34,933 nucleotides of DNA from a virus (taxonomy: Duplodnaviria > Heunggongvirae > Uroviricota > Caudoviricetes): positions 1 through 34,933 of the IMG/VR virus record IMGVR_UViG_2778261229_000002; one strand, given 5' to 3'. The position numbers and the translations under genes were made by a program. The notes under the pieces are model-generated. The model was not told where the DNA came from. It was given only the letters and a program-made list of their open reading frames with translations, and did not search any database. This document shows positions 2,692 through 31,052 of this stretch, piece after piece (within the stretch, counting starts at the first letter, position 1; each line of letters opens with the position of its first letter).

Positions 2692-3348
2692 ATGAACGCT
2701 CAACTCATCCCCGTATTCAACGGCACTATATCTAACGAAACAGCCCTACTTTGTAATGCCCGCGATCTGCACGCTTTTTTAGGTGTTAAAAAGGTGTTTG
2801 CAGCATGGATTACAAATCGCATTTCAGAATACGAATTCATTGAAAATCAAGACTATATTTTGCTTTCCAATTTGGGAAAGCAAACATCTGGTAGAGGCGG
2901 CCACAACCGCAAAGAGTACCACCTCACCCTTGATACAGCCAAAGAGCTGGCGATGGTCGAGCGTAACGAAAAAGGTCGCCAGGTACGACGCTACTTCATT
3001 GAATGCGAGAAACGTTTAAGACAACAAGAAACAAAAGTGGAGAAGGTCTTGTCAGGCTTCATGCCAGCCATTATGGAGGCGATCAAGCTGGAAGACAAAA
3101 AAGAATACAGTGCCCCACTGAAGCCTGGCTACCGCAGTCTGATTCATTCTCCGTCTGGTGTTCTCGGCCTGACGGAGAACTCACTGCTGATGAATCTGCT
3201 GAACCAGTTACAGGAAGACGGGCACGACGTATCGGGCGCGGCGGCGGAGTTGACCACCATGTTCTGCTACATCGTCGGTGTGAGCAAATGCCTGCGTGAT
3301 ATCCAGACGCACGCGGAGTACATCAACGACAAAGCAGGGTTCTTCTGA
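2692..3348 (+). CDS. ant: Phage antirepressor (AntA/AntB-type N-terminal domain plus C-terminal domain)
   Basis: N-terminal block LIPVFNG...[35 protein letters not shown]...[33 protein letters not shown] matches the AntA/AntB antirepressor family as I remember it. GGAG lies 8 nt upstream of the ATG. Confidence 0.7.
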
Positions 3349-3356
3349 CAGAACGG

Positions 3357-3381
3357 AGGCACAGGGATGTGCCTTTAAAAT
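3357..3381 (+). terminator. Weak terminator-like hairpin AGGCACA-ggga-TGTGCCT followed by TTTAAAAT
   Basis: 7-bp stem immediately after the ant stop codon. The T-tract is short, so efficiency is uncertain. Confidence 0.35.
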
Positions 3382-3414
3382 AATCATTGGCGATGTGATG
3401 TAGATTCGCGTAAT

Positions 3415-3431
3415 ATTACCTTAAAGGTAAA
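3415..3431. promoter_or_regulatory. Operator-like palindrome ATTACCTTAAAGGTAAA
   Basis: Same motif family; lies 26 bp upstream of the ATG at 3457. Confidence 0.5.
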
Positions 3432-3456
3432 CCATGTGTTTACATGAGGAGGAGAT

Positions 3457-3666
3457 ATGGGATTTTGGTTCGCTCGTACAAAAACGAGGGATAATGCACC
3501 CAGCCCTCAGGCAAAAAATGCAGAAGTTCCGGCGTCAGCGCAGGTTAACAAGCGTGGTGGAGTATATATCTCATCACAGCAAATTTCTGAGCTTCCTGAG
3601 GTTAAGGAGATGCGTCGTCTCGCTGCTGCAATTGTTAAACAGGATCTTGCCACTGTAAGGAAGTAG
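3457..3666 (+). CDS. Hypothetical small protein, 69 aa (cargo cassette 2, first gene)
   Basis: Strong RBS GAGGAGGAG 3-11 nt upstream of the ATG. Stop TAG at 3664-3666 shares G3666 with the GTG start of the next gene. Confidence 0.55.
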   Translation: MGFWFARTKTRDNAPSPQAKNAEVPASAQVNKRGGVYISSQQISELPEVKEMRRLAAAIVKQDLATVRK

Positions 3667-4532
3667 TGTTGCTAGCTCTTCTAATTATCCCAATCCTGGT
3701 TAGCGGTTATATTATGATAACCGCTAACCAGTATCATTATTTCCGTTTATACCGACACGAAGGCCAGCTTCTTTATATGAAAGTAGCGGCACTAGGTACA
3801 TATTGCCTTGTTGCATCAGTAATAATTGCAGCCGCTATAAAATATAAATGGCCTGATTTTCACCTAGTTCACGATATGGTGGAAACTTTTAATGTAACAT
3901 CAAAACCAGAAACAGATAGAATTTACATGTGGCTGCTTCTTCTCTCAGCCACATCCATTTGCTTCTCTTTGTGTTATGTGTCTGTTGTGTGGGTGAAAGA
4001 TTTTCTTCTTGGTTGTTTTTATAAACGTGATATTTACGAGCAAAAAACAGAGGCAATGAAGGCCAGAGTACTGCGAAAAACTTACTCGCAAGGTTCTTTA
4101 GACTTACTATTGCTTGATGCTATTGAATCGGATCCTAAACGACCAATGTTGATTACTTTATCATCAAACAAAGTGTATGTTGGAATAATAAATGGTTCTG
4201 GTGAACCAACGGAAAATCAGGGTCCGCATCAGCACATATCTTTTGTTCCTTTAATGTCAGGATACAGGAACAAAGAAAACTTATCTGTCACATTCACTAA
4301 TGCTTATCCAGGAGAAATACAGGTCAAGCGGACTGCAGCAATAAGAGGAATTAGCAGAAAGAAAGTGCCAGGACTTGAGATCATGGTGTCTATTGACGAA
4401 ATAAGTTATATATCATGGTTTGATTTTGAAGTATATAAAGCAACAAATAACAAAGTAGAATCCAGGGGGCACGTTATTCGTGTTACCAAAAATGGAAGAA
4501 ATATATATCAAAGAAATAGCAAAAAAGAATAG
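3666..4532 (+). CDS. Hypothetical membrane protein, 288 aa, three N-terminal TM helices plus a soluble C-terminal domain of about 170 aa (cargo cassette 2)
   Basis: Hydrophobic segments LLALLIIPILVSGYIMI, VAALGTYCLVASVIIAAAI and IYMWLLLLSATSICFSLCYVSVVWV. Coding region is visibly AT-rich compared with flanking phage genes (by eye, not computed). Start could instead be the internal ATG about 40 nt downstream. Confidence 0.6.
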   Translation: MLLALLIIPILVSGYIMITANQYHYFRLYRHEGQLLYMKVAALGTYCLVASVIIAAAIKYKWPDFHLVHDMVETFNVTSKPETDRIYMWLLLLSATSICFSLCYVSVVWVKDFLLGCFYKRDIYEQKTEAMKARVLRKTYSQGSLDLLLLDAIESDPKRPMLITLSSNKVYVGIINGSGEPTENQGPHQHISFVPLMSGYRNKENLSVTFTNAYPGEIQVKRTAAIRGISRKKVPGLEIMVSIDEISYISWFDFEVYKATNNKVESRGHVIRVTKNGRNIYQRNSKKE

Positions 4533-4552
4533 CCCGCGCCGCGGGCTTTTTT
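4531..4552 (+). terminator. Strong intrinsic terminator (GCCCGCG hairpin followed by TTTTTT)
   Basis: GC-rich palindrome overlapping the TAG stop of the 288-aa gene, followed by six T. Confidence 0.7.
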
Positions 4553-4624
4553 GTAGACGAAACAAAAGTCAGTGCTACACTCATTGACGCCACATCGAGG
4601 TGGCTTATAGATGGAAATGTCACA

Positions 4625-4786
4625 ATGAAAAAAGCATTTGCTGCACTGTTCGTTTTGTTGTCTCTGGTAGCTTCAACTCAGGCCTTTGCCGGTCGTTGTC
4701 AGCACGACAGCGATACTGCCGCTGACGGCTCCCGCTGCGGTGGGCGTTCTGCGGATTCCCGCCCGGGCGGCGGTGGCATTCGTTAA
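4625..4786 (+). CDS. Small secreted peptide, 53 aa, with predicted signal peptide
   Basis: Translated by hand: MKKAFAALFVLLSLVASTQAFAGRCQHDSDTAADGSRCGGRSADSRPGGGGIR. Absent from the ORF track because it is under 60 aa. Candidate promoter TTGACG (4584-4589), 17 bp, TATAGA (4607-4612). No clear RBS. Confidence 0.4.
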   Translation: MKKAFAALFVLLSLVASTQAFAGRCQHDSDTAADGSRCGGRSADSRPGGGGIR

Positions 4787-4809: not shown

Positions 4810-4821
4810 GTGACATGTCAC
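4810..4821. repeat. 12-bp perfect palindrome GTGACATGTCAC (copy 1 of 3)
   Basis: Identical 12-mers at 4810-4821, 22023-22034 and 24324-24335. This copy overlaps the stop codon of the 4818..5114 gene. Confidence 0.6.
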
Positions 4822-5114
4822 GTTCCTTTTCTGAATGATAGCCGTTCGAAAAATGATGACATTCCACCGCAGACAATAGCAAAGATGATCCCACCAAAGA
4901 AGAGAAGGCCAGCCTGCCACCACTCCCACCGCCATACATCCACAGCACCAACCATACCAACAATCGCTCCAACAAATGGAATATAGCTCACGATGAAAGC
5001 AATGGGGGCTGCAATTATCCAGTGCAATCCCCACCATGATTCAAGCCCAGCCATAATTGCTGCCAACTGAAAAAGGCCAACGACGATATAAACAATGAAT
5101 CCTATCGCTTGCAT
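4818..5114 (-). CDS. Small integral membrane protein, 98 aa
   Basis: ORF track. At least three hydrophobic helices and a Trp-rich segment (VWRWEWWQ). Confidence 0.5.
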   Translation of the reverse strand: MQAIGFIVYIVVGLFQLAAIMAGLESWWGLHWIIAAPIAFIVSYIPFVGAIVGMVGAVDVWRWEWWQAGLLFFGGIIFAIVCGGMSSFFERLSFRKGT

Positions 5115-5309: not shown

Positions 5310-7784
5310 TTATTGCGGAGTGACATCCTGAGGTCGCCACCAGTATGTCTGATTAAACTCTTTCTTCGAACGTTGCTCCATTTTACGCAAATAGCCTGGT
5401 GAAAAATACTCCTGCATCTGGTTAAAGATCATATGATCGAGAGCCGCCTTTAAGTACCAGAGATTCGCACCTGGCATCAAACCTTTCCCCAGCTTCACCA
5501 GATCACCACCAGTCTGCTCACTCTTCCCTTCCACAGCATTTAACGGTATGCCCTGAGCAATCTTCACTACGTCATCAACCAGACCAGCTACCGGGCCAAG
5601 CATCGACGCCAGCGCGCCGCTTCCGTACCTAGTGTGATCTGACAATAAAAAGTCACCGTAAAGGCCAAGGCCACCACCTTTCAGTAGAGCACCAAGCCAG
5701 AATTTTGCGGCACCTTCTCCTGTCATCTCTCGAGGATTACGACCAGACGCAAGGTCGTTAAGTTGCTGCGACAAAGCGCCAAGAATGGTCGTACTGGCAA
5801 TAAACGTCGCAATATATGCCGCACGCCCACCAGCAGACGGCATACCCATAGCGCGTGACCAGTGACGCATAACAACCGAGATAGGGAACGATTTAAACAG
5901 GAAAACACTTCTCGTTAATTCACCTTTCCATGTTCCACGCTGAATACCAGAACCGGTTATCAGTTGCTCACGTGCTCCCGGTGTAATAACAGCCATATCA
6001 ACTTCTTCAGTTACGGCACCGAGCAGTTTACGCATTGCCTCAAATTTCACTCGTTCAGGCTCACCAAGATGTTTAACTGCTGAATCAGGGATACGCATAA
6101 TGCTTTCCGGTGTCAGCATCGTATTATTACCGTTCCCCCAGTCCTCCTGTTGCGCCAGCTTCCATACGCTCCAGTCTGTGTCAGTAATCCCTTTGCTTTT
6201 CAGGATACGAAAATCAGAGTCATCGAGGCTACGAAGGTCTGGTGTCCGTGACACTACTTCTCCCAGGCTTCCCATCATGGTTACGCCATAGGCGCGCTTG
6301 TGCGCATCTGACCATGCTGTAAGCCCACTGGCACGCATTACGGCCGTTGCCGCCCAACGAGACACTGACGGCCCCATATTATCCATCGCCCAGCGGTTAA
6401 CGCTGCCAAGTAGAGATTCCATCGCCAGACCAGCGCGGCGCGCCCGCGCAAGTTCTGTACGGTTCGTTGGGTCCATAGCTTCAAGCTGGTTGCGGAATAA
6501 CTGGTTCATTGGAAGGTTGGTAACCTTCGCAGACAGATACATAGTTCCAAGATCAGAGAACGATGACAGCAACGCGGATCCGAGTCTGCTGGCAACCAGC
6601 CAGTTGCGGATATTGTCAGACCATCGCGCGATGTGCGGATTCGCTACAGGCTGTGTCTTTCCAGAAATAAAGTTGTACAGATTCTCTGTGTTGTTCGCCA
6701 GCCGCTCGACTTTACCGGTTTTACTCGGGTTAGCTGTTGCCGTTTCTGCCTTAACCTGATCAAGAAGGGAGCGGAAAACATGATCGGGGTTTGGGCCATA
6801 TGTTTCCACCAGTGCAATATCTTTACTGATACCTTCCAGGTGACCGACCATGATTTCCCATAGAGAGCGATCGCCATAAAGTTGCTGATATTGCAGATAG
6901 GAATCTGCATCTTTGAAATGTATCTGTCGTGATGCATTACCACGGTTAGCACGTGCGCCGGAAATTCGCATTCCGGTATCAGTAAGCTTATTCAGCCCAC
7001 CAGTAGCGATCGTGTTATAAGCCTCTCCAAGAAATGCAGACAACTCGGCATCGTTCATCAGTTGTCCATCGGCTCGGGTATAATATTTGCGATCCAGCTT
7101 ACCTATAACATCGCTAACCCATTTATCTTTTGATACCGCCCTAACCTTTTCCATAGAATGATGTTGAGGGATCCCCCAGTTTTCGAGATAGCCAATGTCC
7201 CCACCAGCATCATTAAACCGGCGGCGGAGTAGATCTGTCACTTCTCTCCACGCCTTAGCACCTTTTCTTGCTTTAGCATTGCCAGTATTTTGCCCTCGCA
7301 TTTCATATACCAGGTCACGCACACCCGCTTCGTCTTCAAACAGGCCAAAAAAGCGAGGATCAACTGCTTCGAATGCCTCCTGCAATTGACTCAATGCATA
7401 ATCACGAGTGGCTTTTGTTCTGGACTCAACAGAGAGGAAATTCGATTTACCGTCTGCATTAAAAGCAATAGTACGGTTAAGAGCGCCAAGTTTCCCATCA
7501 GCCCCTTGATAGCTATTGATAAATTTATCCAATCTCTGACGTGCGGCTATAGTAAGAGCCACACGACGTTTCTTTAATGCCGCTTCTCGCTGTAATTCTT
7601 CAGATGCCAATTGTGCTGCACGATACAGCCGCTCTGACTCGGAAAGTTGTCGCCACGACATAGGGTCATCACGAGCAATGGAGCGCATATTGCGATAAAT
7701 GCGGTCTTCAATGTTCTGTATTTCTCGCGCCGTTAACGTGCGCTGCGCCGCCTGCTGGACCGCTTGTATACATTCCTGTCTCAT
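5310..7784 (-). CDS. Large virion internal / ejection (core) protein, 824 aa
   Basis: Size and position at the distal end of the virion operon. Assigned by analogy with T7 gp15/gp16 and P22 ejection proteins, not by a recognised motif. Confidence 0.5.
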   Translation of the reverse strand: MRQECIQAVQQAAQRTLTAREIQNIEDRIYRNMRSIARDDPMSWRQLSESERLYRAAQLASEELQREAALKKRRVALTIAARQRLDKFINSYQGADGKLGALNRTIAFNADGKSNFLSVESRTKATRDYALSQLQEAFEAVDPRFFGLFEDEAGVRDLVYEMRGQNTGNAKARKGAKAWREVTDLLRRRFNDAGGDIGYLENWGIPQHHSMEKVRAVSKDKWVSDVIGKLDRKYYTRADGQLMNDAELSAFLGEAYNTIATGGLNKLTDTGMRISGARANRGNASRQIHFKDADSYLQYQQLYGDRSLWEIMVGHLEGISKDIALVETYGPNPDHVFRSLLDQVKAETATANPSKTGKVERLANNTENLYNFISGKTQPVANPHIARWSDNIRNWLVASRLGSALLSSFSDLGTMYLSAKVTNLPMNQLFRNQLEAMDPTNRTELARARRAGLAMESLLGSVNRWAMDNMGPSVSRWAATAVMRASGLTAWSDAHKRAYGVTMMGSLGEVVSRTPDLRSLDDSDFRILKSKGITDTDWSVWKLAQQEDWGNGNNTMLTPESIMRIPDSAVKHLGEPERVKFEAMRKLLGAVTEEVDMAVITPGAREQLITGSGIQRGTWKGELTRSVFLFKSFPISVVMRHWSRAMGMPSAGGRAAYIATFIASTTILGALSQQLNDLASGRNPREMTGEGAAKFWLGALLKGGGLGLYGDFLLSDHTRYGSGALASMLGPVAGLVDDVVKIAQGIPLNAVEGKSEQTGGDLVKLGKGLMPGANLWYLKAALDHMIFNQMQEYFSPGYLRKMEQRSKKEFNQTYWWRPQDVTPQ

Positions 7785-28001: not shown

Positions 28002-28065
28002 GATTTACCCCTGAGGTAATTAAAAACCACATAAGACACGAAATCAATAGATCTTAGAACATTTT

Positions 28066-30467: not shown

Positions 30468-31052
30468 ATGAAAAGTATCCAGGACGTCCGCAGGCAAAAT
30501 CTCAACGACTTGATCGACCGTGAATTCAATGGTGTTCAGACGCGGATGGCTGAAAAACTTGGAACTCAGGCAAATCTGGTAAACCGCTGGGCTCTTGGCA
30601 AGAAGGTTATCGGCGACCAGGTTGCGCGAAAAATTGAAGCTGCCGCCAATAAACCCCGTAACTGGCTTGATATCGATCGCTCGCTTTCTCAGGAAGGTTT
30701 TCAGCCTGTCGGACCAAGCGACATTGGTCAACTGGCGGCTCACAACCTGGAACGCTGGATGAGCGAAAGCCGCGACCTTTCAACGCAGGGAAAACTTCAC
30801 CGCGCATCCGGCGTCGCCCAGGTAACAATCAGCCGCCTGTTAAACAATGAGGTCAGCGTTTCCATTTCCACCCTGGAGAATGTTGCATCCGCATTTGGGC
30901 GTCACGGATATGAATTACTGATTCACCCGCACGACCCCGCGACTATCAACTATGACCGCTCGCGCTACGCATTGTTACCTGAAACAGAGAAGGCAAAGAT
31001 CGAAAGTTACATTGAATTTGTCATCAACCAGAACGAAAAAAACAAACAATAA
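30468..31052 (+). CDS. Phage repressor with two tandem XRE-type HTH domains and no S24 peptidase domain, 194 aa
   Basis: Two HTH-like segments (QTRMAEKLGTQANLVNRWALGKK and LHRASGVAQVTISRLLNNEVSVS). No Ala-Gly/Ser-Lys autocleavage module visible. The opposite-strand ORF 30420..30743 is judged spurious. Confidence 0.65.
   Translation: MKSIQDVRRQNLNDLIDREFNGVQTRMAEKLGTQANLVNRWALGKKVIGDQVARKIEAAANKPRNWLDIDRSLSQEGFQPVGPSDIGQLAAHNLERWMSESRDLSTQGKLHRASGVAQVTISRLLNNEVSVSISTLENVASAFGRHGYELLIHPHDPATINYDRSRYALLPETEKAKIESYIEFVINQNEKNKQ

Follow-up and report, generated by a model that had tools for sequence, protein, structure and literature searches.

What is a pair of AT-rich genes doing downstream of the antirepressor gene of a temperate phage, and how did it come to be there? 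The question is raised by positions 3415 to 4552 of a 34,933-nucleotide (nt) stretch of DNA, here called the window, which spans positions 1 to 34,933 of the IMG/VR virus record IMGVR_UViG_2778261229_000002. Megablast searches with the first 12 kb of the window return the Uetakevirus phages phiv142-3, HEMP4 and phiV10 and the O157 typing phages at 95-97% identity, and for this reason we regard the window as a phiV10/epsilon15-like temperate podophage, a Uetakevirus prophage of E. coli. We propose, tentatively and with a probability of roughly 45%, that the AT-rich block is a moron, an accessory module of two genes that moves horizontally, and that it would serve in anti-phage exclusion at the inner membrane, a reading built on sequence comparison and structure modeling. 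The two genes, designated orfA and orfB, are accompanied by the following elements.

3387 to 3416, plus strand: putative sigma-70 promoter of the slot, with a -35 element TTGGCG (3387 to 3392), an 18-nt spacer and a -10 element TAATAT (3411 to 3416)
3416 to 3430, no strand assigned: operator palindrome TTACCTT-A-AAGGTAA, which abuts the -10 element and is a copy of the motif TTACC-N5-GGTAA
3432 to 4521: swappable slot, equivalent to 2868 to 3498 of phiv142-3 (L001) and 2827 to 2980 of phiV10 (L002)
3446 to 3454, plus strand: Shine-Dalgarno sequence of orfA, GAGGAGGAG, 2 nt before the ATG at 3457
3457 to 3666, plus strand: orfA, encoding a soluble protein of 69 amino acids (aa) that belongs to phrog_5739
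3657 to 3663, plus strand: Shine-Dalgarno-like AAGGAAG for orfB, read from the sequence within the last codons of orfA
3666 to 4532, plus strand: orfB, 288 aa if started at GTG 3666, or 287 aa if started at TTG 3669
3696 to 3731, plus strand: hairpin in orfB codons 10 to 22, a perfect 15-base-pair stem with a 6-nt loop that holds the ATG of Met17
4531 to 4553, both strands: intrinsic bidirectional terminator, AGCCCGCG-C-CGCGGGCT followed by T6

The first-pass annotation, made from the letters of the window, had judged the block by eye to be more AT-rich than its surroundings and took this as a sign of separate acquisition. Both points hold up. Specifically, the region from 3415 to 4552 has 39.3% GC against a window mean of 49.5%; sliding windows of the same size have a standard deviation of 2.8%, a value as low is reached in only 0.36% of them, and the minimum of the entire window lies over the cassette block. 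The skew is carried by orfB, which has 36.8% GC overall and 29.9% at third codon positions (GC3), while orfA is near average at 47.6% and has a low GC3 of 37.7%. In phiv142-3, the closest phage, BLAST identity to the window ends at 3431 and restarts at 4522, with shared flanks that are 96-98% identical on both sides. Between these points phiv142-3 carries two unrelated small open reading frames (ORFs), Orf9 (55 aa) and Orf10 (52 aa), and the cargo of phiV10 is different again (p22, 29 aa). Two marks of a moron are therefore present, namely a deviating base composition and insertion at a spot that is filled differently in related phages. A promoter-like site and a strong terminator also bracket the genes, yet both are parts of the shared slot, and the promoter carries an operator that recurs throughout the phage.

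This last point revises one claim of the first-pass annotation, which had given the cassette an operator and a terminator of its own. Both elements exist where it saw them. The palindrome is present at 3416-3430, and the terminator is a strong GC-rich hairpin (stem-loop 4531-4547, 7 pairs of which 6 are G-C, -14.4 kcal/mol) that reads as a terminator on both strands. Neither is private to the cassette, however, because both are shared with phiv142-3, where they surround other genes, and the palindrome is one of 15 copies in the window. The same terminator is found in L032, a contig with unrelated flanks that carries a 79% identical copy of the cassette and has kept both palindrome and terminator. 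The palindrome of L032 has compensatory changes (TTACCCC..GGGGTAA), and the -35/-10 layout of the slot promoter recurs in phiv142-3, L032 and L008. Comparison of these sequences shows that a single promoter/operator and terminator frame, located downstream of the antirepressor gene, is reused by different cargo in related phages.

What, then, does the cargo encode? OrfB matches phrog_3630 (E value 1e-113 over residues 4-288) and OrfA matches phrog_5739 (E value 7e-52 over residues 1-69), both families of unknown function. A Kyte-Doolittle scan of OrfB yields hydrophobic segments at approximately residues 1-21, 38-59 and 88-112, followed by a soluble domain of about 170 aa. This layout, which the first-pass annotation had described, also appears in two AlphaFold2 models, one built from 18 sequences with a predicted local distance difference test score (pLDDT) of 72.7 and one built from 93 sequences with a pLDDT of 86.6 and a predicted template modeling score of 0.73. 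Both models contain helices at residues 2-20, 22/33-61 and 81-117, linker helices at 127-139 and 145-154, and then a beta-barrel. These features predict for OrfB a location in the inner membrane and about three transmembrane (TM) helices. Its topology is probably N-out/C-in with a cytoplasmic barrel, because the positive-inside rule places R27, R30 and K39 of loop 1, and the run of lysines and arginines after TM3, on the inner face.

The soluble domain was said in the first-pass annotation to contain no recognizable motif, but its fold can be recognized by structure search. The top 50 Foldseek matches for the barrel are Sm/LSm-type proteins and complexes that contain them, with E values from 6e-3 and target template modeling scores of 0.5-0.69. 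In the models, residues ~145-253 form an Sm/LSm-fold barrel with a long insertion, and a basic tail follows the barrel. The N-terminal helix and five-stranded, strongly bent beta-barrel that define the Sm/LSm/Hfq fold are both present in the model, whereas the Pfam LSM and Hfq profiles, used to look for Sm1 and Sm2 motifs, match neither OrfB nor 66 of its relatives. OrfB also differs from Sm/LSm/Hfq proteins in the insertion between strands (residues ~202-238) and in the fusion of its barrel to a membrane anchor. The WYL sensor domains are likewise related to the small beta-barrels of the Sm/LSm/Hfq group. Fold searches of the PDB gave no solved structure that matches the whole OrfB architecture, sequence searches of the PDB with profiles of the OrfA and OrfB families gave nothing, and the literature searched describes neither an Sm fold on a membrane anchor nor the strict pairing.

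Conservation in the OrfB family is concentrated in two places. No part of the protein is more conserved than TM1, which carries an invariant PILVSGY; GQLLY..VA..G follows at the start of TM2. In the C-terminal part the conserved residues are K169, Y171, G173, P181, E183, P195, S198, G199, Y200, R201, K203, Y214, F252 and D253. The RefSeq version of orfB in NZ_CP091044.1 (L003 6398-7153, WP_235165449.1) starts at an internal ATG, Met38, and the resulting 251-aa protein lacks TM1 and the PILVSGY motif. Because the N-terminus is conserved, we consider this start to truncate OrfB. Several genomes have one gene of the pair annotated but not both.

The early codons of orfB also contain the 3696-3731 hairpin (-24.7 kcal/mol, z score -8.2). 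Across 23 homologues, 71% of the cells are paired, compared to 27-53% in controls with slid partners. At one pair there are 8 double changes, and 1 of 500 shuffles attains the covariation score. These values are suggestive of partial conservation, with covariation, within the enterobacterial subfamily, although they are not conclusive because codons 10-22 are constrained by the protein as well. Such a hairpin could pause translation, serve in attenuation or bind a protein. An Rfam scan of positions 3300-4700 returned nothing besides sub-threshold chance matches.

In the partner protein, OrfA, an aromatic and basic N-terminus and a low-complexity linker precede a conserved core, V-x-V-x-x-R-G-G-V-Y-I-S...LPEVKEM..A..IV, that we read as a beta-hairpin plus a helix. 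The family as a whole has the core [VI]-x-V-x-x-R-G-x-V-x-I-P-S-x-E-[IL]-A-x-L-P-E-V-K-E-M-Q-R-x-A-x-x-I-V behind N-termini rich in aromatic and basic residues, and a divergent variant from P2-type phages aligns on the invariant glycine. Ratios of nonsynonymous to synonymous substitution rates, calculated against copies that are 79-94% identical, are 0.03-0.2 for orfA and 0.05-0.07 for orfB, and these low values, indicative of purifying selection, mark both as real genes. A second ORF in an alternative frame (3434-3658, plus strand, 74 aa) overlaps orfA and is open in the close relatives L026, L030 and L008. We rejected it as a gene, since distant homologues conserve the orfA frame alone and the orfA frame is the one that matches the PHROG; its reading frame probably stays open as a side effect of orfA conservation.

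The two genes occur together in every locus surveyed. The strong ribosome-binding site GAGGAGGAG reported by the first-pass annotation does precede orfA, and the TAG stop codon of orfA shares one base with the GTG of orfB at 3666, also as reported, although an alignment of homologues fits the TTG at 3669 equally well or better. The overlap and the Shine-Dalgarno-like sequence inside orfA mark translation of orfB as coupled to that of orfA. Starts of orfB homologues are usually TTG or GTG. In a first survey, all 27 of the 27 loci with upstream sequence have an ORF of 62-98 aa that either stops 0-21 nt before orfB or overlaps its start. These loci come from E. coli, Symbiopectobacterium, Arsenophonus, Yersinia, Cronobacter phage phiES15, Klebsiella and Salmonella P2-like phages, Brachymonas, Turneriella and metagenomic viral contigs. 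Further loci from Providencia, Citrobacter, E. coli, Xanthomonas, Enterobacter, Aeromonas, Stenotrophomonas, K. oxytoca and IncC plasmids all have a homologous small ORF upstream, usually at a distance of a few bases, with spacings of 43 nt in Stenotrophomonas and, at the maximum, 117 nt in Aeromonas. The small partner gene is obligatory for the orfB family.

Among 1.84 billion cluster representatives, a profile search picks out 2,346 relatives of OrfB at E values of 1e-3 or below, of which 923 are at 1e-10 or below. These are counted as clusters at 50% identity, and nearly all are 250-300 aa in length. Members with a name are all called 'hypothetical' and come from Enterobacterales, Aeromonas, Xanthomonas, Stenotrophomonas and others. 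The family extends across podophages, myophages, siphophages, IncC plasmids and non-phage islands, and from Gammaproteobacteria to Leptospirae and Acidobacteria. The full cassette of the window is present in 28 of 5,426 complete E. coli genomes, and none was found at the DNA level in sequenced phage isolates.

The places where the pair resides are similarly diverse. In P2-like phages it occupies the old/tin hotspot between replication gene A or DinI and the portal gene, as seen in Salmonella SEN5, Klebsiella ST15-OXA48phi14.1 and an E. coli 186-like prophage, in the last of which it is the only cargo. In Cronobacter phiES15 and a Citrobacter lambdoid prophage it lies between the integrase gene and the attachment end, in Enterobacter and K. 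oxytoca prophages it is inside tail modules, and in Xanthomonas and Stenotrophomonas it is on integrase-bearing islands. Plasmids carry it as well, 27 in number: Salmonella accounts for 25, most are predicted to be conjugative, and the one examined is IncC. Defence-type genes that directly adjoin the pair include that of a bSEFIR protein (PADLOC E value 7e-103), a WYL/BrxR regulator together with an E1/E2/JAB protein, and, on an IncC plasmid, a RecD-like/PDC-S68 ATPase. In ST15-OXA48phi14.1 (L005 3786-6495) the pair is followed in the same direction by a 69-aa ORF and a 477-aa bSEFIR/TIR protein, a cluster that could represent two stacked systems or one larger four-gene unit.

The P2 hotspot is known to be rich in anti-phage systems (Rousset et al., 2022; PMC9122126), and the OrfB family is listed in Table S5B of that study as systems #43 (93 loci) and #57 (75 loci). 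Both entries bear the LVSGY, SGYRDK and KxYVG motifs of the family, and #57 comes with a small partner containing VEVVGRGAI. The listed proteins are annotated as '2 TM' hypothetical proteins and are 25-35% identical to OrfB of the window. The family motifs are absent from the table of systems that were tested in the same study (2TM-1TM-TIR, Hydrolase+3TM and others). The module is mobile across phage types, plasmids and islands, and it sits in defence hotspots. An exclusion or abortive-infection role fits these contexts. The position of the cassette in the window, which is that of sieA in P22, is in line with such a role as well.

When would the cassette be expressed in the phage of the window? 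The putative slot promoter agrees with the sigma-70 consensus at 8 of 12 positions as read from the sequence, below the cut-off of 9 of 12 used in our promoter scan. The pattern (A/T)TTACC-N5-GGTAA(T/A) matches the window 15 times, 10 of them perfectly, against 0.52 matches expected by chance, at the following positions.

603, 885, 2281, 2406, 3416, 21379, 24213 and 24231: operator motif
28005, 28067, 30013, 30350, 30398, 31110 and 31172: operator motif, remaining copies

Copies abut or overlap -10-like hexamers at the promoter of the antirepressor gene ant (2406), at the cargo promoter, ahead of terS (24213/24231) and at early promoters. One pair is at 28005/28067, and further pairs lie on each side (30350/30398 and 31110/31172) of an ORF at 30468-31052 that encodes a 194-aa protein with two helix-turn-helix domains (Pfam HTH_3, E value 1e-9). 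From this distribution we infer that TTACC-N5-GGTAA is the operator of the phage repressor, for which the 30468-31052 ORF is the candidate. The scattered sites resemble the operators of the P1 C1-like repressor system, and a paper on Uetakevirus (PMC9782041) contains no description of the motif. Because its palindrome has the sequence of this presumed operator, the cassette promoter is likely to be co-regulated with ant, and the cassette would therefore be wired into the regulatory circuit of the phage. The cassette may be repressed in the lysogen, and its expression is probably tied to derepression upon infection or induction, or merely leaky in the lysogen.

Two further observations concern this regulation. 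The motif also occurs upstream of two highly divergent copies of the pair, at L066 7599-7613 and L050 5719-5733 (26% and 48% identity), where a TACTAT-like -10 element precedes the palindrome; one of these pairs lies in the tail module of an Enterobacter lambdoid prophage. This recurrence may reflect chance, a shared type of regulator, or an operator that travels with the cargo. In addition, the hairpin GGCACAGGGATGTGCC at 3358-3376, after the stop codon of the antirepressor gene (-12.8 kcal/mol, z score -4.6), is a weak terminator because its T-run is poor (TTTAAAA). Transcripts of ant may read through it into the cassette.

Could either protein belong to a family that is already characterized? 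Pfam, NCBIfam and PADLOC gave no meaningful match for OrfA, OrfB, four phage homologues, 66 OrfB relatives or 19 OrfA relatives. The small proteins resemble the first hairpin of AbrB/MazE domains, but an AbrB/MazE-type antitoxin identity for OrfA was rejected after hhalign aligned only 17 columns with AbrB/MazE reference sequences at 5% probability, and none of the 19 orfA homologues matched AbrB, SpoVT, MazE or other Pfam families. OrfB was rejected as a SieA homologue, since hhalign of the 93-sequence family profile with P22 SieA gave a probability of 0.4%. It was also rejected as an MscS-like channel, because there is no Pfam match and MscS is in none of the fold-search lists. No homology to holins or O-antigen modification enzymes was found, and three TM helices with a cytoplasmic barrel are unlike Wzy, Gtr and Oac. 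These results agree with the remark in the first-pass annotation that the protein does not resemble SieA, SieB, Rex or Imm.

Resemblances of arrangement are easier to find than those of sequence. In lambda RexA/RexB and mycobacteriophage Butters gp30/gp31, as in the cassette, a two-gene prophage module encodes a polytopic membrane protein and a soluble partner. Our proposal that the partner controls a membrane effector follows the logic of these systems, although no PADLOC or Pfam match connects them to the cassette. RexB crosses the membrane four times and lacks an Sm domain, and RexA, at about 280 aa, is much longer than OrfA with its 69 aa. Like OrfB, CBASS (cyclic oligonucleotide-based antiphage signaling system) Cap15 and similar effectors cited by Rousset et al. 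(PMC9122126) join TM helices to a small cytoplasmic beta-barrel and occur in defence contexts. In contrast, Cap15-type effectors rely on a co-encoded enzyme that produces a signal, their barrel is of another type, and PADLOC gives no match.

How the module might work can be outlined from these parts. OrfB would be anchored in the inner membrane, its Sm/LSm-fold domain facing the cytoplasm, and, as its modeled fold suggests, would oligomerize into a ring like other Sm-fold proteins, thereby bundling three TM helices per subunit. OrfA, made in fixed proportion through translational coupling, would bind OrfB and either keep it inert or serve as the subunit that senses the trigger. Infection would then switch the state of the OrfA-OrfB complex, and the membrane part would leak ions, as in Rex-like abortive infection, or obstruct genome entry. 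Of these two outcomes we favor a generic abortive-type effector over an entry block of the SieA type, because the family crosses phage morphotypes, plasmids, islands and phyla, and because the cytoplasmic barrel conserves tyrosine, arginine and lysine residues suited to binding ligands or nucleic acids.

Several observations weigh against an anti-phage role. PADLOC-DB 2.0.0, with libraries to 2023, matches neither the window proteins nor the 66 relatives beyond two stray single hits. The P2 hotspot harbors non-defence cargo as well, including partition systems and toxins (PMC9122126). Models in which a signal activates the effector, as for Cap15, are left without a source for that signal, because the partner is too small to be an enzyme. 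Finally, a repressor-type operator may keep the cassette silent in the lysogen, which is a poor fit to a classic lysogen-protecting gene.

Might OrfB instead exclude superinfecting phages constitutively, by blocking DNA entry through the ejection-protein conduit in the manner of SieA or T4 Imm, with OrfA as a stabilizer or chaperone? SieA is an inner-membrane exclusion protein of 162-164 aa for which three TM helices are predicted (Leavitt et al., 2024; PMC10883804), and OrfB is likewise prophage-encoded and predicted to have three. The P22 gene order is 7-20-16-sieA-orf59a-mnt-arc-ant-9, so that sieA lies between the ant (immI) region and the genes for ejection proteins, and the cassette, between ant and the internal virion protein genes, mirrors this position. 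Strong conservation of TM1 would also suit contacts within the membrane. The resemblance ends there, however, as SieA is shorter, shares no detectable sequence similarity with OrfB, has no cytoplasmic barrel and acts without a partner, whereas OrfB has one in every locus. The breadth of the family is hard to reconcile with recognition of a single type of ejection apparatus, and an entry block leaves the conserved Sm barrel with no role. We consider this explanation unlikely. A function in the lytic cycle or early infection, such as host takeover, counter-defence, exclusion of competitors during lytic growth or lysis timing, with expression in the absence of repressor, appears somewhat less probable again. 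It draws on the operator that the cassette promoter shares with the antirepressor and terS promoters and the repressor-flanking sites, on the same motif upstream of the divergent cassettes in L050 and L066, and on the proximity of ant, which lies immediately upstream and is separated from the cassette by no more than a weak terminator. Yet this operator belongs to the slot rather than to its cargo, because phiv142-3 has it with other genes. Elsewhere the pair occupies sites of lysogen-expressed cargo (P2 old/tin and the ends between integrase and attachment site) or resides on plasmids and chromosomal islands, which have no lytic cycle, and in the window it is not beside the lysis genes.

The tight coupling of a small upstream gene to a larger membrane protein, and the occurrence of the pair on conjugative plasmids and islands, would also be seen if the module were a toxin-antitoxin-like addiction system, or if it provided the host with a membrane function unrelated to phages, for instance as an ion or stress channel, with OrfA as antidote or regulator. 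Three TM helices with an Sm-like barrel superficially recall the architecture of MscS. In MscS-like channels the pore helix TM3 runs directly into an Sm-like beta domain, which is followed by an alpha-beta domain, and both the MscS and the AbrB/MazE identities were rejected above. We hold this explanation to be the most doubtful of the alternatives. Returning to the preferred anti-phage module, a more ambitious version of it would make OrfB the first Sm/LSm-type ring to act as a membrane-anchored immune sensor-effector. The ring would bind phage nucleic acid or a small ligand on the inner face of the membrane, at the site of genome entry, through the invariant K169/Y171/S198-G-Y-R201/Y214 cluster, and gate a pore formed by the highly conserved TM helices, with OrfA as a releasable lock and the orfB hairpin as an RNA target for self-regulation. 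This version is speculative, and we think it improbable in full. Both protein families are already catalogued, no characterization was found in the literature searched, and there is a slim chance that the system has been named.

The surroundings of the cassette include the following.

2692 to 3348: AntA-type antirepressor gene (Pfam AntA, E value 4e-26), adjoining the cassette on its upstream side
5310 to 7784 and beyond, minus strand: large virion and internal protein genes, downstream of the cassette after small genes

Two of these small genes lie just downstream of the cassette, and both are conserved backbone. One (4625-4786, plus strand) encodes a 53-aa protein with a signal-peptide-like N-terminus that matches phrog_14503, a 'membrane associated protein' in the moron category (E value 2e-40). 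The other (4818-5114, minus strand) encodes a 97-aa hydrophobic protein of phrog_3075 with a weak match to Phage_holin_5_2 (E value 0.026).

If the anti-phage interpretation is correct, the pair would represent a widespread and compact defence family of about 1.1 kb, with some 2,300 sequence clusters in enterobacteria, Aeromonas, Xanthomonas/Stenotrophomonas, Pseudomonas phages and beyond, that current defence annotation tools miss. Host-range prediction for phage therapy directed at E. coli, Klebsiella, Salmonella and Enterobacter would miss the family too. Moreover, the Sm fold would be extended from RNA biology to membrane-based immunity. For the phage itself, the phage-wide operator and the swappable slot between promoter and terminator offer a concrete model of how cargo may be exchanged and regulated in Uetakevirus.

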